Origin: a virus
Taxonomy: Duplodnaviria; Heunggongvirae; Uroviricota; Caudoviricetes
Length of the DNA stretch: 16,327 nucleotides
Direction: 5' to 3' (one strand)
IMG/VR virus record: IMGVR_UViG_2609459850_000004
Span: 1-16,327 of that record
This document shows positions 1-16,000 of the stretch, one piece after another (position 1 is the first letter of the stretch; every line of letters starts with the position of its first letter). Position numbers and translations under genes: made by a program. Below the pieces are notes generated by a model, which was not told where the DNA came from, searched no databases, and worked only from the letters and a program-made list of their open reading frames with translations.

Positions 1-756
1 TTATTCAGAATCAATATCTTTTAAATCATCCTGAATCGCTTGTGCGTTCGGATTTTCCTGCGGTTTGAGTTCGCCGCCATTAGCGATGAAATCATGACGC
101 TGGAAGTACGCTTCGCGCACCATAATATAAGGATCGGACGACTGACGCAGCAGACCATCGGAATCCAGCAGCTGAGCGCGGGTTTCGATCCCTTCAAGCG
201 TCCATTTACCCACAGACATCGGCCAGGTCAGCCAGGAAAGAACCGGGTAAAGACCATCCGCCATATCACCACCGTCATCACGCAGCGTGAAGCTACCGTA
301 GAACGGTAACTGAACGTAAGGCCCATAACCCACGCCATAATGACCAAGCGTACTACCGAAGCGGTGAGGTTCAGTCCGTTGCAGTTTCGGGTTCGCCATC
401 CCTGCAACATCAATAAAACCGCCCATCCCCAAAATGGTGTTCAGGAAAAAGCGGGTAAAGTGGACCATCCCCTGATAAGGGTCGCCCTGCAAGAAGTAGT
501 TAACCATCACCGCAGGTTCTTCAAGGTTGCCAGTAAAGTTGCTCAAACCGTTACGCGCCGGTTGCGGAACATAATCACGCCAGGCGACAGCGACCGGTCG
601 AACAATATACGGGTCTAATACATTGAAGTTGAAGTTGTACATGGTGCGGTTGAACCCTTCTAACGGGTCAGAACGCCCTTGCTGATCTGTACCGGAACTC
701 GCACACCCCACCAGAAGCGTAGTTCCCAGAGCAAGCGCCGACAGGCGAAGCTTCAT
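1..756 (-). CDS. mlaA: MlaA (VacJ) outer-membrane lipoprotein of the Mla phospholipid-transport system
   Basis: Complete 251-aa ORF (stop = revcomp of nt 1-3). N-terminus MKLRLSALALGTTLLVGCASS has a lipoprotein signal with lipobox LLVGC. I recognise the sequence as E. coli MlaA/VacJ, and the neighbourhood (yfdC, argW) matches. Confidence 0.93.
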   Translation of the reverse strand: MKLRLSALALGTTLLVGCASSGTDQQGRSDPLEGFNRTMYNFNFNVLDPYIVRPVAVAWRDYVPQPARNGLSNFTGNLEEPAVMVNYFLQGDPYQGMVHFTRFFLNTILGMGGFIDVAGMANPKLQRTEPHRFGSTLGHYGVGYGPYVQLPFYGSFTLRDDGGDMADGLYPVLSWLTWPMSVGKWTLEGIETRAQLLDSDGLLRQSSDPYIMVREAYFQRHDFIANGGELKPQENPNAQAIQDDLKDIDSE

Positions 757-1049
757 AAATGTCTCCCTGTTTTTTTATGGCTTATGCAGTTTGCCATCCA
801 TGACGGAACGATACCGTATCCGCCTGTTTAGGTGTGGGCGATTGTAACAGCACGTCAACTGATGTCCAGACGCCCTGATTTGCTGATTTGATCATAGCCT
901 GGTAATCGCCACCCTGTAGGCTACTTGATTCTATAGAAACAGAAAAAGGCAAACGCAGCCTTTTCTACATTTTCAGAGTAACTCCCGTCAGTTGCGAGCA
1001 AAAAAGCCGCTACGCTTTAGCTATACGTGCTAATTCAAGAGAAGAGACC

Positions 1050-1982
1050 ATGGACAACGACAAAATTGATCAACACAGCGACGAAATTGAAGTTGAGAGC
1101 GAAGAAAAAGAGCGCGGCAAAAAAATAGAAATAGATGAAGACCGACTCCCCTCCCGGGCGATGGCAATTCATGAGCATATCCGCCAGGATGGTGAAAAAG
1201 AGCTGGAACGCGACGCAATGGCGCTACTGTGGTCAGCCATTGCGGCGGGTCTGTCGATGGGCGCTTCGTTACTGGCAAAAGGGATATTTCAAGTCGAACT
1301 GGAAGGTGTGCCGGGCAGCTTCTTGCTGGAGAATCTCGGTTATACCTTTGGTTTTATTATCGTCATTATGGCCCGCCAGCAATTATTTACCGAAAATACC
1401 GTGACTGCGGTACTACCCGTCATGCAAAAACCGACAATGAGCAACGTCGGCTTACTTATACGGTTATGGGGCGTCGTGCTGCTGGGTAATATTCTCGGGA
1501 CAGGTATTGCGGCGTGGGCATTTGAATATATGCCTATCTTCAATGAAGAAACTCGCGATGCATTTGTCAAAATCGGCATGGATGTGATGAAGAACACCCC
1601 CAGCGAGATGTTTGCCAACGCGATCATTTCCGGCTGGCTGATCGCCACTATGGTTTGGATGTTTCCTGCAGCGGGTGCGGCAAAGATTGTGGTGATTATA
1701 TTGATGACCTGGCTTATTGCCCTGGGTGACACCACCCATATCGTGGTCGGTTCTGTTGAAATCCTCTATCTGGTGTTTAACGGTACGCTGCACTGGAGCG
1801 ATTTCATCTGGCCCTTCGCACTACCTACTTTAGCGGGGAACATCTGCGGCGGCACCTTTATCTTCGCGTTAATGAGTCATGCACAGATTCGTAACGACAT
1901 GAGCAATAAGCGTAAAGCAGAAGCACGCCAAAAAGCAGAACGTGCGGAAAACATTAAGAAAAATTATAAAAACCCGGCATAA
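1050..1982 (+). CDS. yfdC: YfdC inner-membrane protein, formate/nitrite transporter (FNT) family
   Basis: 310-aa ORF with an acidic N-terminus followed by multiple hydrophobic segments. Recognised as E. coli YfdC, which lies between mlaA and argW in E. coli; TAA stop at 1980-1982. Confidence 0.88.
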   Translation: MDNDKIDQHSDEIEVESEEKERGKKIEIDEDRLPSRAMAIHEHIRQDGEKELERDAMALLWSAIAAGLSMGASLLAKGIFQVELEGVPGSFLLENLGYTFGFIIVIMARQQLFTENTVTAVLPVMQKPTMSNVGLLIRLWGVVLLGNILGTGIAAWAFEYMPIFNEETRDAFVKIGMDVMKNTPSEMFANAIISGWLIATMVWMFPAAGAAKIVVIILMTWLIALGDTTHIVVGSVEILYLVFNGTLHWSDFIWPFALPTLAGNICGGTFIFALMSHAQIRNDMSNKRKAEARQKAERAENIKKNYKNPA

Positions 1983-2017
1983 ATGGCGAGGGTTTAAGCA
2001 ATCGAGCGGCAGCGTAC

Positions 2018-2046
2018 TTACCCCGCACTCCATTAGCGGGTATACT
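2018..2046 (+). promoter_or_regulatory. Putative sigma70 promoter of the tRNA-Arg gene
   Basis: TATACT hexamer at 2041-2046, 11 nt upstream of the mature tRNA 5' end, with a weak -35-like TTACCC at 2018-2023 (17-bp spacer). Pattern only, no experimental support. Confidence 0.3.
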
Positions 2047-2057
2047 CATGCCGCATT

Positions 2058-2132
2058 GTCCTCTTAGTTAAATGGATATAACGAGCCCCTCCTAAGGGCT
2101 AATTGCAGGTTCGATTCCTGCAGGGGACACCA
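2058..2132 (+). tRNA. argW: tRNA-Arg (anticodon CCU)
   Basis: 75-nt cloverleaf: acceptor stem GTCCTCT/AGGGGAC, anticodon stem AGCCC/GGGCT with loop CTCCTAA (anticodon CCT), T-arm GGTTCGATTCC, discriminator A and encoded CCA at 2130-2132. Confidence 0.93.
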
Positions 2133-2293
2133 TTTATCAGTTCGCTCCCATCCGTACCAGTCCGCAAAATCCCCTGAATATCAAGCCTTCCGTAGATTCA
2201 CAGTTCGTCATGGTCCGCTTCAGATCGTTGACAGCCGCACTCCATGACGGGTAAAAAGTGGATAAAATAATTTTACCCACCGGATTTTTACCC

Positions 2294-3451
2294 ATGCTCA
2301 CCGTTAAGCAGATTGAAGCAGCAAAGCCGAAAGAAAAACCATACCGCCTACTCGATGGTAATGGCCTGTACCTTTATGTCCCTGTGTCAGGGAAAAAGGT
2401 ATGGCAGCTTCGCTACAAGATTGACGGTAAGGAGAAAATCCTGACCGTCGGAAAATATCCGCTAATGACTTTGCAGGAGGCAAGAGATAAAGCATGGACC
2501 GCGAGGAAAGACATCTCGGTTGGCATCGATCCGGTAAAAGCGAAAAAGGCTTCGTCTAACAACAATTCCTTTAGTGCCATTTACAAGGAATGGTACGAGC
2601 ACAAGAAGCAAGTCTGGTCAGTAGGCTATGCAACTGAACTTGCCAAAATGTTTGATGACGACATTTTACCCATCATCGGCGGTCTTGAGATTCAGGATAT
2701 TGAGCCGATGCAACTGCTGGAAGTAATCCGCAGATTTGAAGATCGCGGTGCAATGGAGCGAGCCAACAAAGCCCGCAGAAGATGCGGCGAGGTTTTCCGT
2801 TACGCTATTGTCACCGGCAGGGCTAAATATAACCCGGCACCTGACCTTGCTGACGCCATGAAGGGGTACCGCAAGAAGAACTTCCCGTTTCTTCCTGCAG
2901 ACCAGATCCCGGCATTCAATAAAGCACTGGCAACATTTTCAGGAAGTATCGTATCGCTCATTGCCACCAAGGTTTTACGCTACACTGCCCTAAGAACGAA
3001 AGAGCTTCGTTCCATGCTATGGAAGAACGTCGATTTTGAAAACAGGATTATCACCATCGACGCCAGTGTGATGAAGGGCCGCAAGATTCATGTTGTTCCT
3101 ATGTCAGACCAGGTGGTTGAGCTTCTCACTACGCTAAGCTCCATCACTAAACCAGTCTCAGAGTTTGTTTTTGCCGGGCGCAACGATAAGAAGAAGCCAA
3201 TCTGCGAGAACGCGGTATTGCTTGTGATCAAACAAATCGGCTATGAAGGTCTGGAAAGCGGTCACGGATTCAGGCATGAATTCAGCACGATTATGAACGA
3301 GCACGAATGGCCTGCCGACGCCATTGAAGTGCAACTGGCACATGCCAACGGCGGATCTGTGCGTGGAATTTACAATCATGCTCAGTATCTCGATAAGCGC
3401 AGAGAAATGATGCAGTGGTGGGCGGACTGGCTTGATGAAAAGGTAGAGTGA
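2294..3451 (+). CDS. intS: P4-family tyrosine integrase (IntS-like prophage integrase)
   Basis: ORF directly downstream of the tRNA and reading away from it. N-terminal arm-binding-type region (KPYRLLDGNGLYLYVPVSGKKVWQLRYKIDGKEK), C-terminal catalytic region with conserved R (LRTKELRS), HGFRHEF and a tyrosine (RGIYNHAQY). The ORF track starts at GTG 2258; I prefer ATG 2294 (385 aa) from my recollection of IntS. Confidence 0.9.
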   Translation: MLTVKQIEAAKPKEKPYRLLDGNGLYLYVPVSGKKVWQLRYKIDGKEKILTVGKYPLMTLQEARDKAWTARKDISVGIDPVKAKKASSNNNSFSAIYKEWYEHKKQVWSVGYATELAKMFDDDILPIIGGLEIQDIEPMQLLEVIRRFEDRGAMERANKARRRCGEVFRYAIVTGRAKYNPAPDLADAMKGYRKKNFPFLPADQIPAFNKALATFSGSIVSLIATKVLRYTALRTKELRSMLWKNVDFENRIITIDASVMKGRKIHVVPMSDQVVELLTTLSSITKPVSEFVFAGRNDKKKPICENAVLLVIKQIGYEGLESGHGFRHEFSTIMNEHEWPADAIEVQLAHANGGSVRGIYNHAQYLDKRREMMQWWADWLDEKVE

Positions 3452-3691
3452 GCGACCTTAAACTATCGAATAGCACAAAGCCTTGCAATCCAGTGCAAAG
3501 CTTTGTGCGTATCAGTTTTGTCTGAGTGTTCTACTGAAAACATAGTAAAATCGGTAACAGTTGGAAATCATTCAATACTCGCACTATCAGAAGTTCACCA
3601 GCCAGTCGTAGCCCGTACCTCCGTACGACGTGCTACGGTTTCATTTATCCGGTGCGCCGTAAAACCCCGTCCTTCAGGGCGTGGAGGATGT

Positions 3692-3775
3692 CAACTGGAC
3701 GCACTGGAGCTGGTCGATACTTCCGGTGCGCCAGATATTGAATGGCCTACGCCTCCGGCTGTTCAGGCCAGATGA
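3692..3775 (+). pseudogene. Relic of a second tail-fibre-assembly (Tfa) gene, C-terminal end only
   Basis: Plus-strand translation ends ...QLDALELVDTSGAPDIEWPTPPAVQAR*, the Tfa C-terminal signature (compare the minus-strand Tfa ending VDTSTAPDVIWPEQPEA). The upstream 60 codons of ORF 3503-3775 look like junk. It is convergent with, and overlaps, the 3' end of the intact tfa. Confidence 0.45.
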
Positions 3776-4163
3776 CATCAGGGGCCGTTGACGTATCAAC
3801 GGCTTTCACCGCTTTTTTATGCGCCATCCACTCAGACAATTTCGCTTTATCCTCGTCACTTATATCGCCGAGCATTAATTCACCCCGCCAGTCGGCGGTT
3901 ACTTCGTCAATCTGCTGTAGCCGTTGCTGGCGATATTGTTCTGCCGCCGCTATTTGCTCTTCATGCGTTGGAGGTGGCGCATCGACCCAAGCTGGCAGTC
4001 CAGTGCTATCTGCACCAAGCATTTTACCTTCAGGCCAGGCAATACCAGCAAATTGGCTGTAGAGGTTAACACTGATTTCAATAGCTGATTCAGGAATAAA
4101 CCTGCTTTCAGGTTCAATATAAAATCCGTTATCAACGGCGTCATAAAAGTATCTTTTTTCCAT
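3747..4163 (-). CDS. Phage tail-fibre assembly protein (Tfa, lambda Tfa / P2 gpG / Mu U family)
   Basis: 138 aa; C-terminus KAVKAVDTSTAPDVIWPEQPEA matches the conserved Tfa tail. It follows the fibre gene, with the stop of the fibre gene adjacent to its start. Confidence 0.85.
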   Translation of the reverse strand: MEKRYFYDAVDNGFYIEPESRFIPESAIEISVNLYSQFAGIAWPEGKMLGADSTGLPAWVDAPPPTHEEQIAAAEQYRQQRLQQIDEVTADWRGELMLGDISDEDKAKLSEWMAHKKAVKAVDTSTAPDVIWPEQPEA

Positions 4164-4164
4164 G

Positions 4165-4878
4165 TTAATAACCTATTGCCAATAAACAACCGGCAGCTTG
4201 AGCAGCCGTCCATGAAGTCCCATTAACTGTTCCTAAAGCACGAACTTTGACTGTCGTTCTGGTAGAGCCATTAATATCGAAGCCCCACGTTGTGCCGGAC
4301 GATCCATTCCACGAGCTAGCAGAAGCACCTGAGTCAATCGCAGTGGCATGAAGCAGAGCGTTAGGAAATGCTATAGGTAATGTAACGGTTGCTAATCCAG
4401 TCGAATCGGCAACAAATCCAGAGACCCACTGGAAAATGATATTTTGTTCAACCCCATCAATTAAAGCCGGGATCAATATTCTCCCGGTATTACCAGTTAC
4501 CCCTACAGCAGCGCCAAGTTTTGCCGCTTCTCCCAAACCAAGATTTTCGAGAGCCGTTTCCACCGTGCCGTCCGATTTGATATCGCCAAACGGATTCTTG
4601 CGGCTCAGGTATTCAACAGCAAACCCCGATCCCAGCAATTCAACAAAACCGGGCAGATCACCATTATCAAGCACATCCCGTTGCGTTTTGTCACTTACAA
4701 ACTGGGCCAGAGCTGCAGCAATAAAGCTGGCCTGCCGAATAACCTTATTGACTTGCGCACTGGATGCTTTACCTGCTGTAAATCCGGATAAAAGCGCGGG
4801 CAACGCTTCCCATTCCTCCTGCGATATAACATTGGCACTTCGATCCGTTGCAAACGCTTTAAAGTCATTTTTCGCCAT
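4165..4878 (-). CDS. Phage tail-fibre protein (short; gpH / Mu S position)
   Basis: Position between the gpI-like gene and tfa. Start ATG at 4878 overlaps the stop of the upstream gene (TGATG); the track's alternative start is 4896. Gly/Ser/Thr-rich C-terminal half typical of fibre distal domains. Assignment is by synteny plus composition. Confidence 0.65.
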   Translation of the reverse strand: MAKNDFKAFATDRSANVISQEEWEALPALLSGFTAGKASSAQVNKVIRQASFIAAALAQFVSDKTQRDVLDNGDLPGFVELLGSGFAVEYLSRKNPFGDIKSDGTVETALENLGLGEAAKLGAAVGVTGNTGRILIPALIDGVEQNIIFQWVSGFVADSTGLATVTLPIAFPNALLHATAIDSGASASSWNGSSGTTWGFDINGSTRTTVKVRALGTVNGTSWTAAQAAGCLLAIGY

Positions 4879-5558
4879 CAGAGTAATACTCCCCATGCTC
4901 CTACATCAAAACCACTGATGAATTCGTTATCTATATCAAAACCAAAAAATTTTGAGCCTTCCGATGGGGTTTCCACCGAAGGTGTTTCAATGCCTCCCGC
5001 CCATACCCCGGCGGCTTTTACTGTGAGATACCCCTGTTTAATTGCCGCAATTAACTCACGCGATACATCTGAAATATCAGTATCAGGAAAGACCCAGACC
5101 GATATCGTCATGTCCTGGTTATCGACTATCTGCATTCGCAGTCCGGATCCTGCTGTCGCCGCGTCAAGAATTACCGGAAGCGAATCATTCCGTCCGTCCC
5201 AGTTATTAATCGCAATCTTCGCTTTAAGAATGACACGATAAGTTTCATCGCTGAGATACATGTATCCAGAATCAGGATCATATGGCCCCTGCCATACCCC
5301 CTGATCATATCCAATCCCGTCGGCATCCCAGCTGAAATAGACACCTGAGATAGGCTGGCTGACAACACGGCTGCGTCCGATCCACAATCCAAGAATGTCA
5401 AGTTGCACACCAACCGCAGAGTCAATATCAAATGCAGTAATCAGCCCTCTGGTGGCAGCCGCAACATCAATAAGCGGCCGGGTCATCAGATCAACATGTG
5501 CAAGAAATTTAGGTTTGGTGGCGTGATAGTTTGTGATTAGTTCGGTGTATTTGCTCAT
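4878..5558 (-). CDS. Baseplate protein, P2 gpI / Mu gp48-like (DUF2313/YmfQ-like)
   Basis: 226 aa; ATGA start/stop overlap with the J-like gene; synteny J-I-fibre. Family recognised from memory. Confidence 0.65.
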   Translation of the reverse strand: MSKYTELITNYHATKPKFLAHVDLMTRPLIDVAAATRGLITAFDIDSAVGVQLDILGLWIGRSRVVSQPISGVYFSWDADGIGYDQGVWQGPYDPDSGYMYLSDETYRVILKAKIAINNWDGRNDSLPVILDAATAGSGLRMQIVDNQDMTISVWVFPDTDISDVSRELIAAIKQGYLTVKAAGVWAGGIETPSVETPSEGSKFFGFDIDNEFISGFDVGAWGVLL

Positions 5559-6754
5559 GACTCCACCGTTATAACGATATTTTCCGGGGTACAGGACGCA
5601 GATTCGTTATATCTGATATCAATGTTTGATGACGACAAAGCCCCAGGGGATTTCCCAATCGTCAGTTCCTGAATATCGTAATAGCGTGCATTCCCGCCAC
5701 TCACCACGCCAAGATTCGCCGGTGAGTAAATGCGACTTAAAAGGACCGAATCACCAATCATCAGACTATTGATATAGTCGGAAATAGCCGGCTGGATCTG
5801 CTGCCCTATCTGTGAGGTATAACCCGTAAAAACTTTTAATTTAATCCGGGCATAAACAGGCACATCACTGGAACGCGAGAATTTGATTACATGGGGATTG
5901 CCGTATTTATCCGGAACCGTAACGGATGTTGTACCGTGAGTGGCTGTACCCTGGCCTTTATTCCCTCTAATAGCCTGAGCAATATCCGTCACATCACCGC
6001 CATCCACAATTACAGCAACAGAGTGTGGCGGTAACCCGTTACCGTCCTCCGAACCAGTATCGTTTTCATAGAGTTTGTGGCGGGTTACACCGGTAACATT
6101 AGAAACAGCACCATCCAGTGCTTCAAATGGGGTTATTGATGGCAACGCAACACTTTGCGACTGGCGGATACGTAACTCCGCATCAGTTTCTGCTGGAGTG
6201 CCTACAGTAGCTGCAGCAGGATTGGTTACCGAAACCCAGCCACGGGTCGGTGTGTTAATGGTGGTAATAGTCCCGGCCATCGCCGCAACCGAACCGCTAT
6301 TCGCACATGTGGCCGTCACCAGCACAGTACCATCAACCCCGATTGCTACACTCGCGGGAAAATTCCAGATAATGCCGTTTTTATCCCGTGCGGAGCCATT
6401 CGTGATAGTCGTGCCAGCCGTACCGGTTAACAGAAGGTCAGCAGTAGAGTTTGTTGCTACTTTTCGCGTGATCCCGTTAATTTTCACATTGCTGCTAAGC
6501 GCTGCGGCCTGCGCTGTCGTCGGTGAAAACGAGTTGTAGATCTCGATAGCGGTATTGTTAGCATCATGCACAGCCAGAGCCACCAGCGCGACCATTTGCC
6601 CATCTTTGCTGTCTGGTTCGAGGTAGGCATCACTACCGTAAATCTGCCTGAAATAGCTGGTCAGTGTATCGAGGATTGTCTGGTAATCAGGCGCACTAAT
6701 CCCCTGGGCGGTTACCGTTGCCGATAGCCCCAGCGTGTCGAGGTTCAAAGCCAT
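5555..6754 (-). CDS. Baseplate J-like protein (P2 gpJ / Mu gp47 family)
   Basis: 399 aa; size and position between the W-like and I-like genes, with translational coupling on both sides. Confidence 0.75.
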   Translation of the reverse strand: MALNLDTLGLSATVTAQGISAPDYQTILDTLTSYFRQIYGSDAYLEPDSKDGQMVALVALAVHDANNTAIEIYNSFSPTTAQAAALSSNVKINGITRKVATNSTADLLLTGTAGTTITNGSARDKNGIIWNFPASVAIGVDGTVLVTATCANSGSVAAMAGTITTINTPTRGWVSVTNPAAATVGTPAETDAELRIRQSQSVALPSITPFEALDGAVSNVTGVTRHKLYENDTGSEDGNGLPPHSVAVIVDGGDVTDIAQAIRGNKGQGTATHGTTSVTVPDKYGNPHVIKFSRSSDVPVYARIKLKVFTGYTSQIGQQIQPAISDYINSLMIGDSVLLSRIYSPANLGVVSGGNARYYDIQELTIGKSPGALSSSNIDIRYNESASCTPENIVITVES

Positions 6755-7108
6755 TTATGCCTCGCTTGTTACAGTCGTCTGGCCGTAGATTGTGTCAATG
6801 GAGGAAGTGAAAGTGACGCGTCGGCTGTTGCCGTCATAATTGGTATCGAAGGAAAGAATCGACAGAACGCCCGGCGTGTCCTGTATGCGTTCGCGTATAG
6901 CCAGGATGTAGACGTCTGATCGCTGTTTCCCAAGCACTGACTGAACATACGGCGTACCTTCCGTCAGATCGAGAAACCACTGACCGCGCCACAGCTCGAA
7001 ACGGGTTTTTACGGCCTGGGCGACACACTCCGGACTGTCTATAAGGAAGGTGTCGTCACCCTGCCCGAAAGTGTAATCACCGTCAGCATCTTCTCGTCGG
7101 TATCGCAT
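6755..7108 (-). CDS. Small baseplate protein, gpW / gp25 / Mu gp46-like
   Basis: 117 aa; sits between the V-like and J-like genes and its start overlaps the V stop (TAATG). Assignment mainly by size and synteny. Confidence 0.5.
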   Translation of the reverse strand: MRYRREDADGDYTFGQGDDTFLIDSPECVAQAVKTRFELWRGQWFLDLTEGTPYVQSVLGKQRSDVYILAIRERIQDTPGVLSILSFDTNYDGNSRRVTFTSSIDTIYGQTTVTSEA

Positions 7109-7848
7109 TATTGCGGCCCTCCAGTAGTCCCCCCGCCTGTCTGAACTCCGCCATGTTTATGCGTGGCGACACTTATACCTGAAGCTGTCACATCATTCGT
7201 TACCGTAACCGGCCCAAGCATCGTCGCAGTACCACCACTTTCTCCCATTCCCTGAGACAGGTTACCGTTAATCGTTACGTTGCCGTTCAGCGTGATGGTC
7301 GGGGATGTGATTGTCGTTCCACCTTCAGCCGTAGCCGTAAGCTGGCCCGGCGTTTTAATGGTGATGTTATGTCCTGCAGCGACCTCTACGAACGCCGCAC
7401 CATCATCGGTTCGCAGCTGCGCGGCGCTGGTGCTGATACCACTGATTTTCTGTGCTTGCGACTGCGGGCCAACGATGGCGAACGCATCAGATAAGTCATG
7501 CTGGCGCGGGTCGACGGTCTCCTGAACGCCGCCGCTCTGCCACCAAAAATCAATGCAACGGTCGGCAAAGATCAGCAGGCACTCGTCGCCTTCTTTTACC
7601 GGAAAGGTCAGCGTGCAACCGCCGCCGCGCGGGAAGATAACCGGCACATCCACCAGCGGTTTTAATTCGGTGGAGCCATCGCCAACAATACCGCGAAGCG
7701 CCACTTCTACTGTGCAGGTTACAGCGTCAGGATCGAACGACTGAATGATGCCAGGCATCGCCACGCGCATTTGGGTAGACACTGAATCGGCAATGGCCTG
7801 CGCGGTCTGCTGCTCACCGCCGATCTGTGATTGAGTTGGAATTGGCAT
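7108..7848 (-). CDS. Baseplate spike/hub protein (P2 gpV / Mu gp45 family)
   Basis: 246 aa; C-terminus ...ATHKHGGVQTGGGTTGGPQ matches the gpV apex motif (P2 gpV ends HTHKHPGDSGGTTGSPL) and N-terminal ...MPGIIQSFDPDAVTCTVEV resembles the gpV OB-fold start. An internal Met (MRVAMPGII) could be the true start. Confidence 0.8.
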   Translation of the reverse strand: MPIPTQSQIGGEQQTAQAIADSVSTQMRVAMPGIIQSFDPDAVTCTVEVALRGIVGDGSTELKPLVDVPVIFPRGGGCTLTFPVKEGDECLLIFADRCIDFWWQSGGVQETVDPRQHDLSDAFAIVGPQSQAQKISGISTSAAQLRTDDGAAFVEVAAGHNITIKTPGQLTATAEGGTTITSPTITLNGNVTINGNLSQGMGESGGTATMLGPVTVTNDVTASGISVATHKHGGVQTGGGTTGGPQ

Positions 7849-7858
7849 AAAAACCCCA

Positions 7859-7882
7859 TAAAAAAACCAGCCGAAGCTGGTT
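7859..7882 (-). terminator. Rho-independent terminator-like hairpin (minus-strand sense)
   Basis: Stem AACCAGC (7865-7871), loop CGAA, stem GCTGGTT (7876-7882), preceded on the plus strand by A7, which is a T-run after the hairpin on the minus strand. Lies about 10 nt upstream of the gpV-like start. Confidence 0.4.
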
Positions 7883-8059
7883 TGGTATCAATTACTAAGC
7901 TACATCAGTGTGAAGTAAGGCTTTTCCGCTGCAATGGCACACATTCACAAGGTGTATTAGGATATGTTTGCAACAAGTAAGCATTAAAAATCAATTTCAG
8001 CCATGAAGCCGCCATAGAGTGGACCTGCACCATCGCATTCTTGACTACAGGAGTAACAA

Positions 8060-8350
8060 ATGGGATTTAGATTTCGCAAAAGAATCCGGATTGCGCCCGG
8101 ACTCGCGATCAACATTAGCAAAAGCGGAGTAAGCACTTCGATTGGTGGTAAAGGTTCCACCATTAACATCGGGAAAAAAGGCGTAAAGATGACAAATGGC
8201 CTTCCCGGCACTGGGCTGTCGCATACCACTAACCTTTACTCTCCCGGAAAATCGACAGAAAAAAAACAACTTACTCATAAGCAAAAAATAATTAGAAACA
8301 TCCTGTTCGTAATTATTGTGTTTATTATAATTAAAGCTCAATATTTTTGA
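8060..8350 (+). CDS. Small DUF4236-like protein with C-terminal transmembrane helix
   Basis: 96 aa; RBS AGGAG at 8049-8053 with 6-nt spacer. N-terminus MGFRFRKRIRIAPGLAINISKSGVSTSIGGKG...PGTGLSHT matches the DUF4236 pattern as I remember it; C-terminal ILFVIIVFIIIKA is hydrophobic. AT-rich. Confidence 0.6.
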   Translation: MGFRFRKRIRIAPGLAINISKSGVSTSIGGKGSTINIGKKGVKMTNGLPGTGLSHTTNLYSPGKSTEKKQLTHKQKIIRNILFVIIVFIIIKAQYF

Positions 8351-8355
8351 CGCAT

Positions 8356-8386
8356 GCCCGCCTATCTGGCGGGCTATTTTACTTTT
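8356..8386 (+). terminator. Rho-independent terminator between convergent genes
   Basis: Perfect 7-bp stem GCCCGCC (8356-8362) / GGCGGGC (8368-8374), loop TATCT, then T-rich TATTTTACTTTT. The lipoprotein stop codon lies inside the stem. Confidence 0.6.
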
Positions 8387-9264
8387 CGGCAGTCGTATGT
8401 TGCATACTGTCGCGGCGCATCCATGCTGGCTTGTACCCACTGAGCGTTTAGGATGGCTTTTCCTTTACGTTTAATGTATTCAATACCAACCCAACGACCG
8501 GGCAGACTGGTAGCAACCATCCACTCCATTTTTATATTATCCGGTTCGTTGTTAGTGCTGCCACCAGCACCGATGGGAGTAATTTTTTGCGTCTCTGGTT
8601 TCGCGCCATTAATTCTGGCCCAGCCATCAGCAGAGGAAAGATCTATCCTATACGGTCCACAAACTATTATGTAATTGATGCCAAGTTTTTCGTTGCTGCG
8701 AGCTTTCCTGCTTTTCTCATAATCTTCCTTCGCAACATCATTCATCTTTTGATAGATAGCAGGTTGTTTTAAAGAAAACTCATTCAGCTTCTTAATAAAG
8801 TTTTCTCGCGGAACCTCTGCAAGCCCCATAGATTTTCTATCAAGGATATAGTCATCATATATCTTTGACACAACAGAAAGTGATGACAGTTTTTTAGCTA
8901 AATCATTTGCAAAGTTTAGATAATTAAGTGGTGAGTTGTCTCTTATATCAATAGCTCTAACTCCACCTGTACCGTATTCATGATAAGCAGCATAAAAAAC
9001 AGGTATACTTTCAGGTTTTTTGTTAATCGCTTTAATTAGTCCTTCTGGACCGCAAGACTCTCCACTCCAGTCAATAAGCGACTTCCCTTTCGATTTCCAT
9101 GTTTGGCAATCATCAGCTGATAAAATTAAAATTGGCTGCCACCCCGGGCGTTTTTTGTAACTAACATTCTTATCAGAATTGAAGCCTGCATTTGCGCATC
9201 CAGAAACGAGCAGCACCGACAGGAAAATCACACTGTATCGAAGTCCATTCATGTTCTTATACAC
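8374..9264 (-). CDS. Lipoprotein of unknown function
   Basis: 296 aa; signal peptide with lipobox LLVSGC; strong RBS AGGAGGAGG upstream of the GTG start at 9264 (alternative ATG at 9252). AT-rich compared with neighbours. Confidence 0.65.
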   Translation of the reverse strand: MYKNMNGLRYSVIFLSVLLVSGCANAGFNSDKNVSYKKRPGWQPILILSADDCQTWKSKGKSLIDWSGESCGPEGLIKAINKKPESIPVFYAAYHEYGTGGVRAIDIRDNSPLNYLNFANDLAKKLSSLSVVSKIYDDYILDRKSMGLAEVPRENFIKKLNEFSLKQPAIYQKMNDVAKEDYEKSRKARSNEKLGINYIIVCGPYRIDLSSADGWARINGAKPETQKITPIGAGGSTNNEPDNIKMEWMVATSLPGRWVGIEYIKRKGKAILNAQWVQASMDAPRQYATYDCRKVK

Positions 9265-9308
9265 TCAACCTCCTCCTGAACGAGCTATAGTCGCCTGGCT
9301 AATCAGAT

Positions 9309-9322
9309 GGCACTGTTGCAAA
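9309..9322. repeat. IS26 terminal inverted repeat (14 bp)
   Basis: GGCACTGTTGCAAA, the perfect reverse complement of 10115-10128. Confidence 0.95.
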
Positions 9323-9360
9323 GTTAGCGATGAGGCAGCCTTTTGTCTTATTCAAAGGCC

Positions 9361-10065
9361 TTACATTTCAAAAACTCTGCTTACCAGGCGCATTTCGCCC
9401 AGGGGATCACCATAATAAAATGCTGAGGCCTGGCCTTTGCGTAGTGCACGCATCACCTCAATACCTTTGATGGTGGCGTAAGCCGTCTTCATGGATTTAA
9501 ATCCCAGCGTGGCGTTGATTATCCGTTTCAGTTTGCCATGATCGCATTCAATCACGTTGTTCCGGTACTTAATCTGTCGGTGTTCAACGTCAGACGGGCA
9601 CCGGCCTTCGCGTTTGAGCAGAGCAAGCGCGCGACCATAGGCGGGCGCTTTATCCGTGTTGATGAATCGCGGGATCTGCCACTTCTTCACGTTGTTGAGG
9701 ATTTTACCCAGAAACCGGTATGCAGCTTTGCTGTTACGACGGGAGGAGAGATAAAAATCGACAGTGCGGCCCCGGCTGTCGACGGCCCGGTACAGATACG
9801 CCCAGCGGCCATTGACCTTCACGTAGGTTTCATCCATGTGCCACGGGCAAAGATCGGAAGGGTTACGCCAGTACCAGCGCAGCCGTTTTTCCATTTCAGG
9901 CGCATAACGCTGAACCCAGCTGTCAATCGTGGAGTGATCGACATTCACTCCGCGTTCAGCCAGCATCTCCTGCAGCTCACGGTAACTGATGCCGTATTTG
10001 CAGTACCAGCGTACGGCCCACAGAATGATGTCACGCTGAAAATGCCGGCCTTTGAATGGGTTCAT
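9361..10065 (-). CDS. tnp26: IS26 transposase Tnp26 (DDE, IS6 family)
   Basis: Translation MNPFKGRHFQRDIILWAVRWYCKYGISYRELQEMLAERGVNVDHSTI...GDPLGEMRLVSRVFEM recognised as Tnp26. ATG at 10065 lies 64 bp inside the element end; the track ORF begins at an upstream TTG (10083). Confidence 0.95.
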   Translation of the reverse strand: MNPFKGRHFQRDIILWAVRWYCKYGISYRELQEMLAERGVNVDHSTIDSWVQRYAPEMEKRLRWYWRNPSDLCPWHMDETYVKVNGRWAYLYRAVDSRGRTVDFYLSSRRNSKAAYRFLGKILNNVKKWQIPRFINTDKAPAYGRALALLKREGRCPSDVEHRQIKYRNNVIECDHGKLKRIINATLGFKSMKTAYATIKGIEVMRALRKGQASAFYYGDPLGEMRLVSRVFEM

Positions 10066-10114
10066 GTGCAGCTCCATCAGCAAAAGGGGATGATAAGTTT
10101 ATCACCACCGACTA

Positions 10115-10128
10115 TTTGCAACAGTGCC
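10115..10128. repeat. IS26 terminal inverted repeat (14 bp)
   Basis: TTTGCAACAGTGCC, the perfect reverse complement of 9309-9322. Confidence 0.95.
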
Positions 10129-10154
10129 CGTGCAGTTAAGCAGAGGGCTGAATA

Positions 10155-11306
10155 ATGGTGAACGAGAGACGAGATTATGAGGTTAATTTCCTGTACTACC
10201 CGGAAGTGTTCGCTGCGGCTCTGTCGCGTGTTGAACCAGACACGTCAGTCCTGGGCTGGCTGGGCCAGGCTCGCGCTCTGGCGTGCTGGTGTGAGCTGCT
10301 GAGGCTCGACCCACTGGAGACCTGTGTGGAGTGGTCTGCGCGTGGTGTGAACGCGGGTAAGGCCGACAGGGCAATGTTAGCGTCGGCGCTGCGTGACCTG
10401 GATGACCTCGACCGGCTGGCGGCGGCTGGGGCGTTCCTGCGCTCCTCCGGGGTGGCTGCTGACGTTGCTGCCGGGCGCATCGCTGTTCGTGAGCCCACCG
10501 AGGACGAGCTGGCTGCTCGTCAGGCGCATCTGGTTGCACTACGGGAACGTGCGGCTGCTGCTGCGGCGAAGCTGACGGAGGCTCGCATTAAGGCAACCGG
10601 TAGGGCGCGGATGCTGCTGCATCGCGCCAAAAAGCCGGGGAATGCGGCGCTGTACTGGAAGGCCAAGGAGCGAGCTGCGGAGCGTTTGCTGCCGTGCCCT
10701 GACGACGTGAAGTGCTCGGACTGGAGCACGTTCCTGCCGGTGCTGGGTCGCGTGTGGTGGAATGAGTCGCTTCTGGTGCCGCTGTACGGGGTGAACGAGT
10801 CACTACGGTTGGAGTGTATGTCAGTGGAGGTGATTTGCGGTCGCGCCAACCCTGAGGCGGCAGGTTCGCTGGGCGAGAAGCGTGGCCTCGAGAATGCACC
10901 GCGTGAGGGGCTGTTTTACCCGTTCGACCTGTCCAGCGTCCGTTCTGGTAACCCTCTGGTCATCTGCGAGGGGTTCATGTCGGGGCTGGCGCTCTCTCTG
11001 CTGATGGGCGGCAAGCTGCCGGTGATCTGCGCGATGTCGGTGGGTAACTTCGGGGCGACAGTGCAGACGCTGAATAAGTTTGTTATGGGTGACTCCCCGT
11101 TCGTACTGGTACCGGACATTGGCGGGCAGGATCTGGCTATCGATCAGGCTATCCCGAATGCCCGGGTGATCGACCTGTCGGCGGTACCGGGAGCCGAGGG
11201 CGTGGACGGCTACGACCCGTTCGATCTGCTGGCGCGTCATGGTGTCGAGATGGGACGTAAGTATCTGCGGAGCTTGTTTCGTGAGGCGCGTGACGCGAGC
11301 CTGTAG
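10155..11306 (+). CDS. Toprim-like domain protein (primase-related?), high GC
   Basis: 383 aa; RBS GAGGG 7 nt upstream of the ATG. C-terminal half carries NPLVICEGFMSGLALSLL...PVICAMSVGNFGATVQ...FVLVPDIGGQDLAIDQ, resembling Toprim motifs (DnaG-like EGxxD...DxD region). The Ala/Arg-rich N-terminal half is unrecognised. In-frame stop at 10149-10151 shows the ORF is not truncated by IS26. Confidence 0.55.
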   Translation: MVNERRDYEVNFLYYPEVFAAALSRVEPDTSVLGWLGQARALACWCELLRLDPLETCVEWSARGVNAGKADRAMLASALRDLDDLDRLAAAGAFLRSSGVAADVAAGRIAVREPTEDELAARQAHLVALRERAAAAAAKLTEARIKATGRARMLLHRAKKPGNAALYWKAKERAAERLLPCPDDVKCSDWSTFLPVLGRVWWNESLLVPLYGVNESLRLECMSVEVICGRANPEAAGSLGEKRGLENAPREGLFYPFDLSSVRSGNPLVICEGFMSGLALSLLMGGKLPVICAMSVGNFGATVQTLNKFVMGDSPFVLVPDIGGQDLAIDQAIPNARVIDLSAVPGAEGVDGYDPFDLLARHGVEMGRKYLRSLFREARDASL

Positions 11307-11337
11307 TGGTACCAGGTTTCTCTCTCTCGTTGTTCTC

Positions 11338-11363
11338 AGCCCGCTTCGGCGGGCTTTTATTTG
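11338..11363 (+). terminator. Rho-independent terminator
   Basis: Stem AGCCCGC / GCGGGCT with TTCG tetraloop, followed by TTTTATTTG; 32 nt after the stop at 11306. Confidence 0.6.
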
Positions 11364-11374
11364 AGGATCTCCCC

Positions 11375-11680
11375 ATGACCGACCAGACCACCACCATCGC
11401 CGACCTGGCGCTCTCACAATCCGCGTTTCTCGTCTCTCAGGCTGTCGTTGAGCTGGACGCCATGTTCGGCGAGGGCTATGCCGCTGCTCACCCGGCTGTG
11501 CTGGCTCAATTCCTGCAGACGGCGGGGGTCATCTTCGCCACACAGCTGCAGGCTTCTGCCGCGTTCGACCTTGCCTCGCAGCTCGACCGCCTGATTGGCT
11601 TGGGGCTGGCTTGCTGCAAGCCAATCAGGGTGCCTCGCACTAAAACGCCGGGGCCGGCTGCGATCAGTCCTTTGCTATGA
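11375..11680 (+). CDS. Hypothetical small protein (101 aa)
   Basis: ATG at 11375 preceded by GAGGA at 7-nt spacing, immediately after the terminator. Ala/Leu-rich with no recognisable motif. The track ORF begins upstream at 11306 without an RBS. Confidence 0.45.
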   Translation: MTDQTTTIADLALSQSAFLVSQAVVELDAMFGEGYAAAHPAVLAQFLQTAGVIFATQLQASAAFDLASQLDRLIGLGLACCKPIRVPRTKTPGPAAISPLL

Positions 11681-11828
11681 GGCGACGCCCCAGGGGTTCG
11701 CCCCTGATCAGCTGGAGTCCGTAGACCGGACGTCTGATGCCCGGTGGCGGGCGTTCTACCTCGCCAGCTATGGCTACTGCCTCGAGTACGCGGGGTTTTG
11801 ACCTGGGCGGCGGCTGCCGCGCTACCGG

Positions 11829-12356
11829 TTACTTCAGGTCAGGCATCCGGCGGGTGATCACCGTGTTGATGCGGTCGTTGTTCCATGGGCGACCGTTCGA
11901 CTGCAGGAGCCCTGCCTCGTTCAGCGCCTGGGCGATAGCTTTGTTGTCGTAGCGGAATCCCCGATCGCGCTGCTCCTCCCTCATGCGCCGTATGGTGGCC
12001 ATCACCTCGGCCTCGTCGTAATGCCCCGAAAATTCAGCGCCAGCGGGGCGCTGTGCTGCGTTTTGTGTTTCAGATGAGTTACTAGTCAGCTTTTCAGCCC
12101 GTGGCCTTGTAGCGCGTCCTGTTGGCTTCTGTAGCACATTGTGTTTCAGCGTATTCGAGATGTCCTGCAGCAGCTCCACCATCAGGTCGAGGCGGTTGCC
12201 GCTCTCCCCCTGCGGCTCTGGTATGCCAAGGTATGCACGGAGTGCGTCGGTAATCACGTCGGTGCGGGTACGGTTCGTTTTCTCGGCCAGCTCGTTCGTC
12301 TGCTCGAGCAGGTCGGCGGGGAGACGTAGGCTGAATGTCGGGCTTTTGCGCTGCAT
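11829..12356 (-). CDS. Ribbon-helix-helix DNA-binding protein with recombinase-like C-terminal domain
   Basis: 175 aa from ATG 12356, with AGGAG-containing RBS. N-terminus MQRKSPTFSLRLPADLLEQTNELAEKTNRTRTDVITDALRAYL is a typical RHH (CopG/Arc-like) segment. C-terminus EVMATIRRMREEQRDRGFRYDNKAIAQALNEAGLLQSNGRPWNNDRINTVI resembles the recombinase-family DNA-binding domain pattern (IA..LN..G....G..W....V..I). No serine-recombinase catalytic domain is present. Confidence 0.55.
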   Translation of the reverse strand: MQRKSPTFSLRLPADLLEQTNELAEKTNRTRTDVITDALRAYLGIPEPQGESGNRLDLMVELLQDISNTLKHNVLQKPTGRATRPRAEKLTSNSSETQNAAQRPAGAEFSGHYDEAEVMATIRRMREEQRDRGFRYDNKAIAQALNEAGLLQSNGRPWNNDRINTVITRRMPDLK

Positions 12357-12860
12357 CCGTGTTGCTCCTGTGTGGTCTGGTGCCACCGATTGAAACACGT
12401 TTGTAACTTCTCGTCTATTTCGACGTGTTGCGCTTGTGCTGCATAACCGGTACGGGTCGAGCCCTTCGGCTCGACTCTCTGGTGCCAGTGGACAAGCCCT
12501 GTGGACAATTTGCCGTGTCAGTGAATAAATGCGTGGCGCGATCACGACAGCTCGATAAGCGGTCGCCGTTCAGTGGCGTGAAGGGTTAGGATCGGTTAAG
12601 CTGATCGTCGTTCGTGGATTATGTTGGGTGATCTGCGGGCACAAAAAAAGCACCTGGCCGGGTGCTTTGATTGCCGGGGTTAAACCCCGTAGTTTCGAGT
12701 CAGTGTCTTGACGGACGTACTCGAAGGAAATCATACATCACGTTGGGTGATTCTCAAATCCTCGCTGAGAATTGTATCACGTCGATAAGATCGTGCAAGT
12801 CGATTTCCTCCGTAATCCCCCGCCTGACGCCGACTCCTACGTTTTTAAAGGAGTTGTAAC

Positions 12861-14420
12861 GTGCCAAAAACTAAACAAGAAATAGCCACTGTAACGCCGA
12901 TCACCGCTGCACCGTCACCGCTGTCGCTAAAATTGGGCGATGCGCTGTTTTCTGTCTTGTCGGTGTCTGCGGACTGGTCTGGTGACTACCGCGCTCAATT
13001 CGAGCTGTATGGCCTGAATGTAAAAGCTATCAACTCTGCCGTCGGCACTGCCGTCTGGCACGCTGGCAAGGGGCGGTTCCTCTCTGTCCTAAATGGCTCC
13101 CTGACCGAGTTCGATAAGGGCGACGGAATGAAGCTGCTGGAGGACTCCTGCGGCAAGTTCTGGCACCGCACCGATGCGTTTATCGCCCGCCTGACTGACC
13201 TCAAAATCAAGACCGACGACAAGGTAACCAAGGCGTGTATCGATATGGCTCGGGCTGTTCGTCAGGCGGGGGCTGAGTTCATCATGCTGCGCCGTCAGGT
13301 GGCAGTCGTTCGCCTCGACGTGGACATGTTCGCCACGGCTCCTCGCGTCGAACTGGTGGGTGAAACTGTGACGTTCGTCCGTCCTCATGCTCCCTATCCG
13401 GTGGCTAATGCCGACAGTGACGTGGTGGCTGATTGGCTGGTTCATTTCCCTCAATGCCATGAGTTCCTCGACGCGCTGGTTGCAGCCCGCTTTGCCTCAA
13501 GCCGTAAGAATGCCTACCTGTTTTTCCGTGCGCAGTCCGATTGGGGTAAGGGGCTGCTGTTTGGTGCTGGCGGCGTTCTGTCACGCCTGGGAGCGACGGT
13601 GGAGCTGTCCGAGGGGGAGCTGCTCAACATCCTGAGCGGTGCCAACTCCGGTGTAACGGCTAGTCACTTCATGGGGGCGCTGGCGCTGATCGTCAACGAA
13701 TGCACCAGGGTGACGAAAAAGCACTTTCGTCTTGAGGAGTCGCTGGCTCTGACGCCGAAGTACCTCACGACGCAGTGCGTGAACCTGTACATGAAAATTT
13801 TCACCAGTGCCGACCCGATCCCCGGACTGTCCGACTCCGACGGAATTGACCCGCAGGTGGCGAACCGCTTTTCTATGCTCGATCTGCAGGGCGACATCAA
13901 GACGCGCCCGCTGTTCCTGTCCGACAAGGGACGCTATGTCGACAGCCTGACGTCGTTCTTTGCCGCCGAGCTGAATGCCAGGGTGGCGTCCTATCAGGCT
14001 AAGGGCTTTGAGACCGCTCGCCGCGATGCCGACCATGTTCTGGCTGCTTTCACCACTGCGCATGGGTTGGCGAATGCTGCCGGGCTGATCACCGACGCGT
14101 ATGACGAAATTCGGGCTGAGTGGGTGGCGTTCGTCCATGGGCGTGTTGCTGATGGGCACCCGGACTTCCTCACCTTCGAATCAAAGGCTGGTTTGGTTCT
14201 CCGCTCTCCTGTCGGATGCTGGGGTAAGTTCCTCGACTGGTACGTGGACAAAAGCGAACCGCTGCGCCGTGCTCGCCTGATGCATGACCGCGATCTGATC
14301 ATCGGCTGCGCGAAAAAATACCGCGATGTTGGTGGCGCTGCTGAAGGCAAGGGGGTGCTCATCCCGTTCGTGTCCGGCTCGATGCCCGACAACGTCCACC
14401 GGTTCCGGTACAAAAATTGA
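12861..14420 (+). CDS. Hypothetical 519-aa protein, candidate replication-associated (unrecognised family)
   Basis: Long high-GC ORF with GTG start preceded by AAGGAG at 7-nt spacing, followed by a strong terminator and an iteron array. No family recognised; the replication role is inferred from context only. Confidence 0.65.
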   Translation: MPKTKQEIATVTPITAAPSPLSLKLGDALFSVLSVSADWSGDYRAQFELYGLNVKAINSAVGTAVWHAGKGRFLSVLNGSLTEFDKGDGMKLLEDSCGKFWHRTDAFIARLTDLKIKTDDKVTKACIDMARAVRQAGAEFIMLRRQVAVVRLDVDMFATAPRVELVGETVTFVRPHAPYPVANADSDVVADWLVHFPQCHEFLDALVAARFASSRKNAYLFFRAQSDWGKGLLFGAGGVLSRLGATVELSEGELLNILSGANSGVTASHFMGALALIVNECTRVTKKHFRLEESLALTPKYLTTQCVNLYMKIFTSADPIPGLSDSDGIDPQVANRFSMLDLQGDIKTRPLFLSDKGRYVDSLTSFFAAELNARVASYQAKGFETARRDADHVLAAFTTAHGLANAAGLITDAYDEIRAEWVAFVHGRVADGHPDFLTFESKAGLVLRSPVGCWGKFLDWYVDKSEPLRRARLMHDRDLIIGCAKKYRDVGGAAEGKGVLIPFVSGSMPDNVHRFRYKN

Positions 14421-14426
14421 ACAATA

Positions 14427-14448
14427 ACCCGCTTCGGCGGGTTTTTTT
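14427..14448 (+). terminator. Rho-independent terminator
   Basis: Stem ACCCGC / GCGGGT with TTCG loop followed by T7 (14442-14448); 7 nt after the TGA at 14418-14420. Confidence 0.7.
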
Positions 14449-14454
14449 ATGGCT

Positions 14455-14535
14455 TGGAACCTCGCTGGAACCTCGCTGGAACCTCACTGGAACCTTCTTA
14501 AACCCGCGCCATTGCTGGTTGGAACCTTTGGAACC
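14455..14535 (+). repeat. Direct iteron-like array of heptamer TGGAACC
   Basis: TGGAACC at 14455, 14466, 14477 and 14488 (exact 11-bp period, unit CTGGAACCTCG), plus two more copies at 14520 and 14529. Confidence 0.8.
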
Positions 14536-14606
14536 TGATTTTCTAACCTTCTCTCTCCAATAACGAAAGCTCTCTCAATTTCCCTGATTACTCTTTTTAA
14601 AAAATA

Positions 14607-14696
14607 GGTTCCAAGGTTCCATCGTTGATTTTAAAAGATTTTTTAAGGTTCCAATGCGGTTCCAAGGCGGTTCCACAAGGTTCCAAGGCGGTTCCA
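14607..14696 (-). repeat. Inverted-orientation array of the same heptamer (GGTTCCA)
   Basis: GGTTCCA at 14607, 14615, 14647, 14658, 14669, 14679 and 14690 (10-11-bp period in the last five, unit GCGGTTCCAAG). Separated from the direct array by an AT-rich spacer (14536-14606). Confidence 0.8.
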
Positions 14697-15973: not shown

Positions 15974-16000
15974 ATCGCCCTCCGGTTACAGTCAAAACTA

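Follow-up and report, generated by a model that had tools for sequence, protein, structure and literature searches.

A baseplate and tail-fibre gene block at the argW prophage locus of Escherichia coli, bordered by IS26 and plasmid-derived DNA

The tRNA gene argW of Escherichia coli is the integration site of the cryptic prophage CPS-53 (KplE1), and the argW recombination module, consisting of attL, intS, torI and attR, is conserved (PMC3509656). Related prophages are found in many E. coli genomes. We compared these systems with a stretch of 16,327 nucleotides (nt) from IMG/VR record IMGVR_UViG_2609459850_000004, the whole of which we call the window. It carries six minus-strand genes for baseplate and tail-fibre proteins (3747-7848) next to the integrase gene intS. 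We favour the explanation, at a probability of about 0.8, that this block is the promoter-distal end of the late tail operon of a KplE1/CPS-53-family argW prophage, cut off at an IS26 element joined to plasmid-derived DNA. The object is of an ordinary and already-understood kind, a remnant of a cryptic prophage that sits at a classic attachment site and was cut by IS26.

The argW locus and its prophages

The left end of the window is a segment of the E. coli chromosome. Bases 1-3523 are 98.5% identical to K-12 MG1655 (blastn), and their K-12 counterpart is the left end of CPS-53/KplE1. The features of this part are:

1-756, minus strand: mlaA, which precedes the element as in K-12
1050-1982: yfdC, which precedes argW as in K-12
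2058-2132, plus strand: argW, tRNA-Arg(CCU), called by ARAGORN
2115-2132: attL core of the prophage, which is the 3' end of argW
2294-3451, plus strand: intS, tyrosine integrase of the KplE1/CPS-53 recombination module, 385 amino acids (aa); the longest open reading frame (ORF) starts at 2258

The order mlaA-yfdC-argW lies ahead of the integration into the 3' end of argW, with the dsdC side falling outside the window, and an IntS-type tyrosine integrase adjoins attL within the stretch that is 98.5% identical to K-12 at the nucleotide level. In the K-12 annotation, CPS-53 starts 15 nt before the end of argW. The product of intS has the Pfam domains Arm-DNA-bind_3, Phage_int_M and Phage_integrase, and the gene is annotated as intS in E89, Ecol_224 and K-12. 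A first-pass annotation of this DNA, made from the letters alone, had placed an integrase directly downstream of the block and had proposed a comparison with CPS-53. The integrase is where it was said to be (2294 or 2258 to 3451, plus strand), and the comparison returned the same locus and the same integrase. A second copy of the attachment core, which would mark attR, was not found in the window with up to three mismatches allowed; the core occurs once. We also found no torI among the window ORFs or the gene calls of the source contig, past whose end torI and attR could lie.

CPS-53 of K-12 resembles the window in its integration site and attL and in the minus-strand Tfa and fibre sequences that come after intS, and both are defective remnants. 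Short blastn matches to the window fall in tfaS/yfdK and yfdL. Unlike the window, CPS-53 carries gtrABS (yfdGHI) and yodE in the interval from intS to the Tfa genes. Of the tail block it keeps only a Tfa and a fibre pseudogene, lacking the wedge, J, sheath initiator and spike genes, and it retains torI, attR and fragments of the early region. The window, in contrast, has an intact distal baseplate and no gtr genes, and its right side is replaced at IS26.

The full-length relatives show what a prophage of this type contains. Ecol_224 (NZ_CP018948.1) carries an apparently complete prophage at the same argW site, in the order argW-intS-Tfa-fibre-DUF2612-J-W-V-DUF4236-hypothetical-hub-plug-baseplate-tape measure (with an SLT domain)-chaperone-DUF3277 tube-DUF3383 sheath-neck-head-TerL-TerS-lysis. 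We use "hub" as a working label for the "hypothetical" gene of about 355 aa that lies between the baseplate plug gene and V in the full-length relatives. The same structural module, together with the antiterminator Q and a lambda-type holin, occurs at other sites in FJ_Ec_21 and SY3626, and the module is also present in the phage records vB_EcoM-611R5 and Citrobacter phage Omnitron. Complete hub, tape measure, tube, sheath, head, terminase and lysis genes are carried by the full-length relatives (Ecol_224, FJ_Ec_21 and SY3626, the induced phages vB_EcoM-611R5/606R2, and Omnitron) and not by the window. FJ_Ec_21 and Ecol_224 share the gene order of the window, and their V, W, J and wedge proteins are 98-100% identical to those encoded there. 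The relatives differ from it in the fibre tip and Tfa, and some sit at other sites (the bio-ybhB, dacD and tadA regions).

The parent of the remnant would have been a temperate, lambdoid-regulated myovirus prophage at argW. The order in this family begins with attL in argW and rightward intS. Reading on from there, the leftward genes are Tfa, fibre, wedge, J, sheath initiator, spike, hub, plug, tape measure, tube, sheath, neck, head, terminase, lysis and Q, followed by torI and attR. Such a phage, lambdoid in regulation and lysis and with a DUF3383 sheath, is neither P2-like nor Mu-like.

The first-pass annotation had taken the adjacency of integrase and Tfa as a sign of deletion. We reject that interpretation: the full-length Ecol_224 prophage has the same intS-Tfa adjacency, so the arrangement is native to the family and is not a deletion scar. 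The argW allele of E89 has decayed independently: intS is followed there by an IS1 and an acyltransferase gene, the DUF2612 gene is truncated, a piece of the hub gene is fused near the head genes, and torI-dsdC stands at the far end. This allele shows that the argW prophage locus decays repeatedly and by different routes.

Six distal baseplate and fibre genes

The six consecutive minus-strand ORFs span 3747-7848 and are tightly packed. They are, in order of coordinate:

3747-4163, minus strand: Tfa, tail-fibre assembly chaperone, 138 aa (PF02413 Caudo_TAP, 2e-32; phrog_188, 3e-41)
4165-4878, minus strand: tail fibre, 237 aa (PF21882 gp53-like_C, 5e-9; phrog_11303, 9e-66 over residues 1-128)
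4878-5558, minus strand: baseplate wedge protein DUF2612/Phage_Wedge1, 226 aa, in the position of P2 gpI and Mu gp48 (PF11041, 1e-46)
5555-6754, minus strand: Baseplate_J wedge protein, 399 aa, of the P2 J and Mu gp47 family (PF04865, 4e-16; phrog_6, 5e-74)
6755-7108, minus strand: sheath initiator, 117 aa, functional equivalent of P2 W and T4 gp25 (PF10934 Sheath_initiator, precomputed on the source contig; phrog_120, 2e-36)
7108-7848, minus strand: central spike, or baseplate assembly protein V, 246 aa (PF18352, 1e-41; PF18946 Apex; TIGR01644)

The presence of six consecutive minus-strand genes, as first annotated, was borne out by ORFs and family matches far beyond chance, and searches of the Pfam, PHROG and PDB collections placed all six in phage families. 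The junctions had been described as overlaps of 1-4 nt. This description fits V/W (1 nt), J/DUF2612 (4 nt) and DUF2612/fibre (1 nt), the last provided that the fibre starts at the ATG at 4878, which is the start in the source-contig gene call (237 aa); the longest ORF starts at 4896. It does not fit the other two junctions, since W and J abut with no overlap and a 1-nt spacer separates fibre and Tfa.

The spike has the OB-fold N-terminal domain and apex of the P2 V/phi92 gp138 type. It scored 51.7 bits against TIGR01644 (phage_P2_V), for which the cut-off is 46.75, and it matches spikes in the PDB that include P2 V (3qr8). V was the only protein named by NCBIfam; the other seven proteins scanned gave no match. 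The 117-aa ORF is a sheath initiator of the gp25/W type. It was missed by our own Pfam scan (E<=0.01), probably because the model set was older, and its identity was settled by the precomputed Pfam, PHROG and PDB matches. Seven solved sheath initiators matched it with E-values from 7e-10 to 2e-4 (9zd7 gp87, 7e-10; Pam3 gp21, 2e-9; XM1 gp15, 1e-7). The Baseplate_J protein is a gp6/TssF-like wedge and is accompanied by a second wedge partner. Its PDB matches were 9zd7 gp88 (8e-33), XM1 gp16 (3e-16) and Mu gp47 (9ki1, 3e-6). The matches of the DUF2612 partner to wedge proteins in the PDB were 9zd7 gp89 (6e-6), XM1 gp17 (7kh1, 1e-4) and Pam3 gp23 (0.06).

The baseplates of XM1 (7kh1, gp15-17), Pam3 (7yfz, gp20-23) and 9zd7 (gp86-89), solved by cryo-electron microscopy, have the spike, sheath initiator, J wedge and second wedge encoded consecutively and in the same order as the window. 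The kinship is distant (E 1e-33 to 0.06), and those structures are of complete virions, whereas the window proteins are known from sequence. The first-pass annotation had recognised in the block the order Mu gp45-48-S-U and P2 V-W-J-I-H-G. The functional order is indeed shared: spike, sheath initiator, J, wedge partner, fibre and chaperone. The sequence families are shared at V and J only, because the W and I positions are occupied here by PF10934 and PF11041, which are of the XM1/Pam3 type. At E<=0.01, Pfam gave no window match to GPW_gp25/GP46 or Tail_P2_I/YmfQ. For the fourth gene specifically, the scan at that threshold returned neither Tail_P2_I nor DUF2313/YmfQ; DUF2612 (PF11041) was its sole hit. 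On profile matches and gene order, we regard the DUF2612 wedge as an equivalent of P2 gpI and Mu gp48 by position and function, and not as a member of their families.

The proteins have stayed close to those of the full-length relatives. Compared with FJ_Ec_21, amino acid identity is 100% for V, 100% for W, 99.5% for J and 98.2% for the wedge, and there are no internal stops. The identity or near-identity of these proteins to those of full-length prophages argues that the truncation is recent. The truncation also seems to be confined to this strain: in 5,426 complete E. coli genomes there was no place covering at least 80% of the window, the best covering 47%, and the IS26 variant described below is recorded on this contig alone.

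Intact and tightly coupled ORFs might instead be taken to mean that the block is a selected functional unit, such as a donor of host-range cassettes, a module that complements or interferes with infecting myoviruses, or one part of a split tailocin. A cassette of fibre tip and Tfa 96.5% identical to the one in the window is present in an unrelated prophage with a Mu-like tail in strain C11, which shows that more than one type of prophage carries such cassettes. We nevertheless consider a selected unit the least probable of all the explanations discussed here. The truncation is private: 47% is the most of the window that any complete E. coli genome covers. Its recency accounts for the near-identity to full-length prophages. 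Neither a late promoter nor an activator gene is present, V is preceded by a terminator-like hairpin, and sheath, tube and lysis genes are missing. No sheath, tube or head genes were found in the window, in agreement with the first reading of this DNA. Hub, tape measure and lysis genes, like those for sheath and tube, are absent from the window and from the 21.5-kb portion of the contig covered, apart from the 44-nt end of the hub gene. Without hub, tape measure, tube and sheath genes the remnant cannot build a tail or a tailocin. We therefore rejected a tailocin or functional tail as a candidate, and the earlier description of the block as a remnant stands.

The break at IS26 and its interpretation

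It had been stated that nothing phage-like lies upstream of the spike gene. This proved incorrect, as 7849-9308 is still prophage DNA and ends at an insertion sequence:

7864-7883, minus strand: terminator-like hairpin with a T-run, AAACCAGCTTCGGCTGGTTTTTTTAT, from a consensus scan, 16 nt upstream of the V start codon
8060-8350, plus strand: DUF4236 gene, 96 aa, a moron on the opposite strand within the baseplate operon (PF14020, 2e-20)
8374-9264, minus strand: predicted lipoprotein, 296 aa, a moron between the hub and spike genes (ORF; signal ends LLVSGC)
9265-9308, minus strand: end of the hub gene, last 44 nt (13 codons, stop and 2 nt), the prophage truncation point
9309-10128, minus strand: IS26, 820 bp, with its transposase gene at 9361-10065, on the border of the prophage remnant and plasmid-derived DNA
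10129-16327, no strand assigned: plasmid-derived DNA, not phage, about 60% G+C to about 15300 and then low in G+C

The break falls on a single base. Positions 8343-9308 are 100% identical to FJ_Ec_21 and E89, and the sequences are unrelated from 9309 onward. The hub coding sequence of FJ_Ec_21 ends at the position equivalent to 9265, and the gene continues past the point equivalent to the break as ...CACGAGCGCC / ...CACGAGCGCCACGCGCAAAGC. The DUF4236 gene occupies the equivalent place in the full-length prophages FJ_Ec_21, SY3626 and Ecol_224, and FJ_Ec_21 and E89 both match the DNA of the lipoprotein gene at 100% identity. The first-pass annotation had not linked the truncation to an insertion sequence, and the break coincides with the end of IS26 at 9309.

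IS26 was identified by 14-bp terminal inverted repeats, GGCACTGTTGCAAA, at 9309-9322 and 10115-10128, and by an IS6-family DDE transposase (DDE_Tnp_IS240, 6e-49). It is 99.8% identical to annotated copies, with 2 mismatches in 821 bp relative to an annotated intact copy (blastn). We did not find a target-site duplication around it. The 8-bp flanks, AATCAGAT and CGTGCAGT, differ, so a simple insertion that duplicated its target does not account for this IS26. Plasmid p5-S1-CAM-01-A (NZ_CP145712.1) matches the DNA from 9309 through to the contig end at 99.9-100% identity, and this match includes the junction between IS26 and the adjoining segment. The matching segment on that plasmid likewise sits between IS26 and IS903B, and two direct IS26 copies are present around this material.

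In the sequence of events that we favour, an IS26 already joined to the plasmid-derived segment would have entered the hub gene near its 3' end by recombination. The presence of the same IS26/segment junction on p5-S1-CAM-01-A points to IS26 having been attached to plasmid DNA before that recombination. The event would have severed the six distal genes and the two morons from everything upstream, including the Q-dependent late promoter, which in full-length relatives lies a long way upstream of the break point. Lacking torI and attR, the remnant would also be unable to excise.

Describing the prophage as reduced to a baseplate and fibre block, as had been done at first, is right insofar as the prophage is incomplete; the missing genes may have been deleted or may lie beyond the inserted DNA. 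Under the second possibility, the prophage would be interrupted and not reduced. An IS26-bounded plasmid segment, or a whole plasmid of 20-35 kb, would have been inserted in the hub gene by cointegrate formation. The 5' part of the hub gene and the tape measure, tube, sheath, head, lysis and early genes, together with torI and attR, would then be intact beyond a second IS26 outside the contig. It is established that IS26 transposition yields two directly oriented copies flanking the incoming DNA, and p5-S1-CAM-01-A has just such a pair around this material. The contig also stops in IS903B ahead of any far boundary, and the genes of the remnant show no decay. Set against this, the IS26 copy has unique flanks on both sides in a draft contig that broke at IS903B, its transposase variant is recorded on one contig only, and no target-site duplication is visible in the window. 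The first two of these observations suggest a single copy of IS26. An interruption is thus unlikely, though it is the most serious competitor of the reading that we prefer.

We infer that the upstream genes of this prophage were deleted and not displaced. IS26 was assembled with unique flanks, the contig breaks at IS903B, and the variant is unique, all of which favours a single IS26 copy and hence loss over a two-copy cointegrate. Several points weigh against a deletion at IS26 or against details of it. The contig ends inside IS903B before the far boundary is reached, so the region from hub to attR may not have been lost. On entering a new target, IS26 normally forms a cointegrate with two copies, a process that would displace the rest of the prophage and not delete it. 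The source is a draft assembly, and the join across IS26 is provisional. Finally, the probable silence of the block, discussed below, is deduced solely from missing signals and a consensus terminator scan.

The source contig, JNMD01000073.1 (GCA_000700065.1), comes from a 2014-era draft with short contigs and stops 825 bp past the window, inside IS903B. With an assembly of this kind, an artefact has to be weighed. The hub gene could carry a simple insertion of IS26, or a deletion that IS26 borders, which the assembler misjoined through the shared IS26 to a contig of plasmid origin, and the whole right part, including the IS26/segment junction, does exist on a plasmid. The same contig is recorded for two samples, however, and assemblers usually break at repeats instead of misjoining them, as this contig did at IS903B. 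The left junction at 9308/9309 would be real either way, leaving the hub disrupted and the six-gene block cut off. We consider a misjoin quite improbable.

The remnant is probably not transcribed as an operon, and its expression is probably negligible, because the late promoter is gone and the terminator-like hairpin lies just upstream of V. A consensus scan between this hairpin (7864-7883) and V gave no convincing promoter match. It is very unlikely that the block is still expressed by read-through from the IS26 transposase gene or the lipoprotein moron, supplying fibres or baseplate subunits to related myoviruses in the same cell or exchanging its host-range cassette with them; this prospect ranks only slightly above that of a selected functional unit. 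If it were true, a prophage stump generated by IS26 would be a working donor of host range and not dead DNA.

For annotation, the six genes are best labelled as a prophage remnant and not as a tailocin, and an integrase beside tail-fibre genes need not signal a deletion, since the arrangement is native in this prophage family. The window represents one allele of the well-studied argW (KplE1/CPS-53) locus, in which truncation by an IS26 carrying plasmid DNA is resolved to a single base. It adds to the cases in which IS26 has linked plasmid-derived DNA to a prophage in the chromosome. Beyond annotation, its significance is small.

The IS26 transposase reads HSTIDSW, at codons near positions 9919-9924, where the canonical sequence is HSTIYRW. 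The difference amounts to first-position changes in two neighbouring codons of the N-terminal DNA-binding region. Among 153 billion gene positions, the exact protein was recorded on this contig alone, in 2 samples. The variant could be a private and possibly inactivating mutation, or a sequencing error.

The lipoprotein had no Pfam, NCBIfam or PADLOC match, and its C-terminal 97 aa alone match phrog_3443, a family of unknown function. PGAP annotates just a 288-nt pseudogene in this region, and Ecol_224 has a short form of 114 aa. A role for the lipoprotein in superinfection exclusion is a guess. PADLOC assigned no defence family to the two morons or to the proteins of the plasmid segment, except for weak matches of the winged helix-turn-helix type between a 108-aa regulator and CARF models.

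Positions 10129-15285, at about 60% G+C, are common to plasmids of about 12 kb in Escherichia, Citrobacter and Klebsiella. They encode proteins of 383 and 519 aa, neither of which belongs to a Pfam, NCBIfam or PADLOC family, and a ribbon-helix-helix protein. Related small plasmids have a VapE/DUF5906-type protein annotated in the matching region, and the 519-aa protein may be an analogue of a replication primase/helicase. The remainder, 15286-16327, is a low-G+C module with a 135-aa ORF and the 108-aa winged-helix regulator, followed by the IS903B end. This module is related to mobilisable plasmids of about 3 kb.

The fibre cassette and a relic of an inversion system

Two further features lie within and beside the fibre and Tfa genes:

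4528-4553, no strand assigned: 26-bp imperfect palindrome, TTCTCCCAAACCAAGATTTTCGAGAG, a candidate Din-invertase crossover site at the junction of the constant and variable parts of the fibre gene
3695-3775, plus strand: Tfa', C-terminal remnant of a second, convergent Tfa gene, 81 nt, overlapping the 3' end of the intact Tfa gene

Related prophages have the N-terminal part of the fibre (DNA 4527-4878) in common, and the receptor-binding C-terminal part (4165-4526) has been swapped. In blastn comparisons, homology to FJ_Ec_21 and Ecol_224 sets in within the fibre gene, at 4527. Whole-fibre amino acid identity to the relatives is 52-56%, and fibre tips and Tfa proteins are 23-56% identical. The C11 prophage, which carries the same tip and Tfa cassette, differs from the window in having a YmfQ protein at the wedge position. 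There the cassette is the alternate half of an invertible segment that adjoins a recombinase gene.

The palindrome resembles crossover sites of the gix/hix/cix type. The core AAACCNNGGTTT has one match with one mismatch, at 4535-4546, and 0.65 such matches are expected by chance across the whole window. The translation of Tfa' (...LELVDTSGAPDIEWPTPP) is similar to the C-terminus of Tfa (...AVKAVDTSTAPDVIWPEQP), and this region has blastn matches to the tfaS/yfdK overlap of K-12 and to the convergent Tfa pair of vB_EcoM-611R5. The window thus contains relics of an invertible fibre cassette of the Mu/P1/e14 type. A working segment of the Din-invertase (Gin/Cin/Pin) kind was not found in the window, which has one crossover-like site, one full set of fibre tip and Tfa, and no invertase gene. 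The complete invertible arrangement is present in C11 and in vB_EcoM-611R5. From these comparisons, the fibre tip and Tfa are a swapped host-range cassette, and the window holds a fixed relic of a switch of the Gin/Pin type.

In FJ_Ec_21, whose prophage is integrated in the bio-ybhB region, a stretch of 287 bp (locus 11964-12250) that adjoins the Tfa genes is 92.7% identical to the 3' end of intS and the DNA downstream of it. This stretch suggests that the tail-end block moved between attachment sites along with a fragment of intS.

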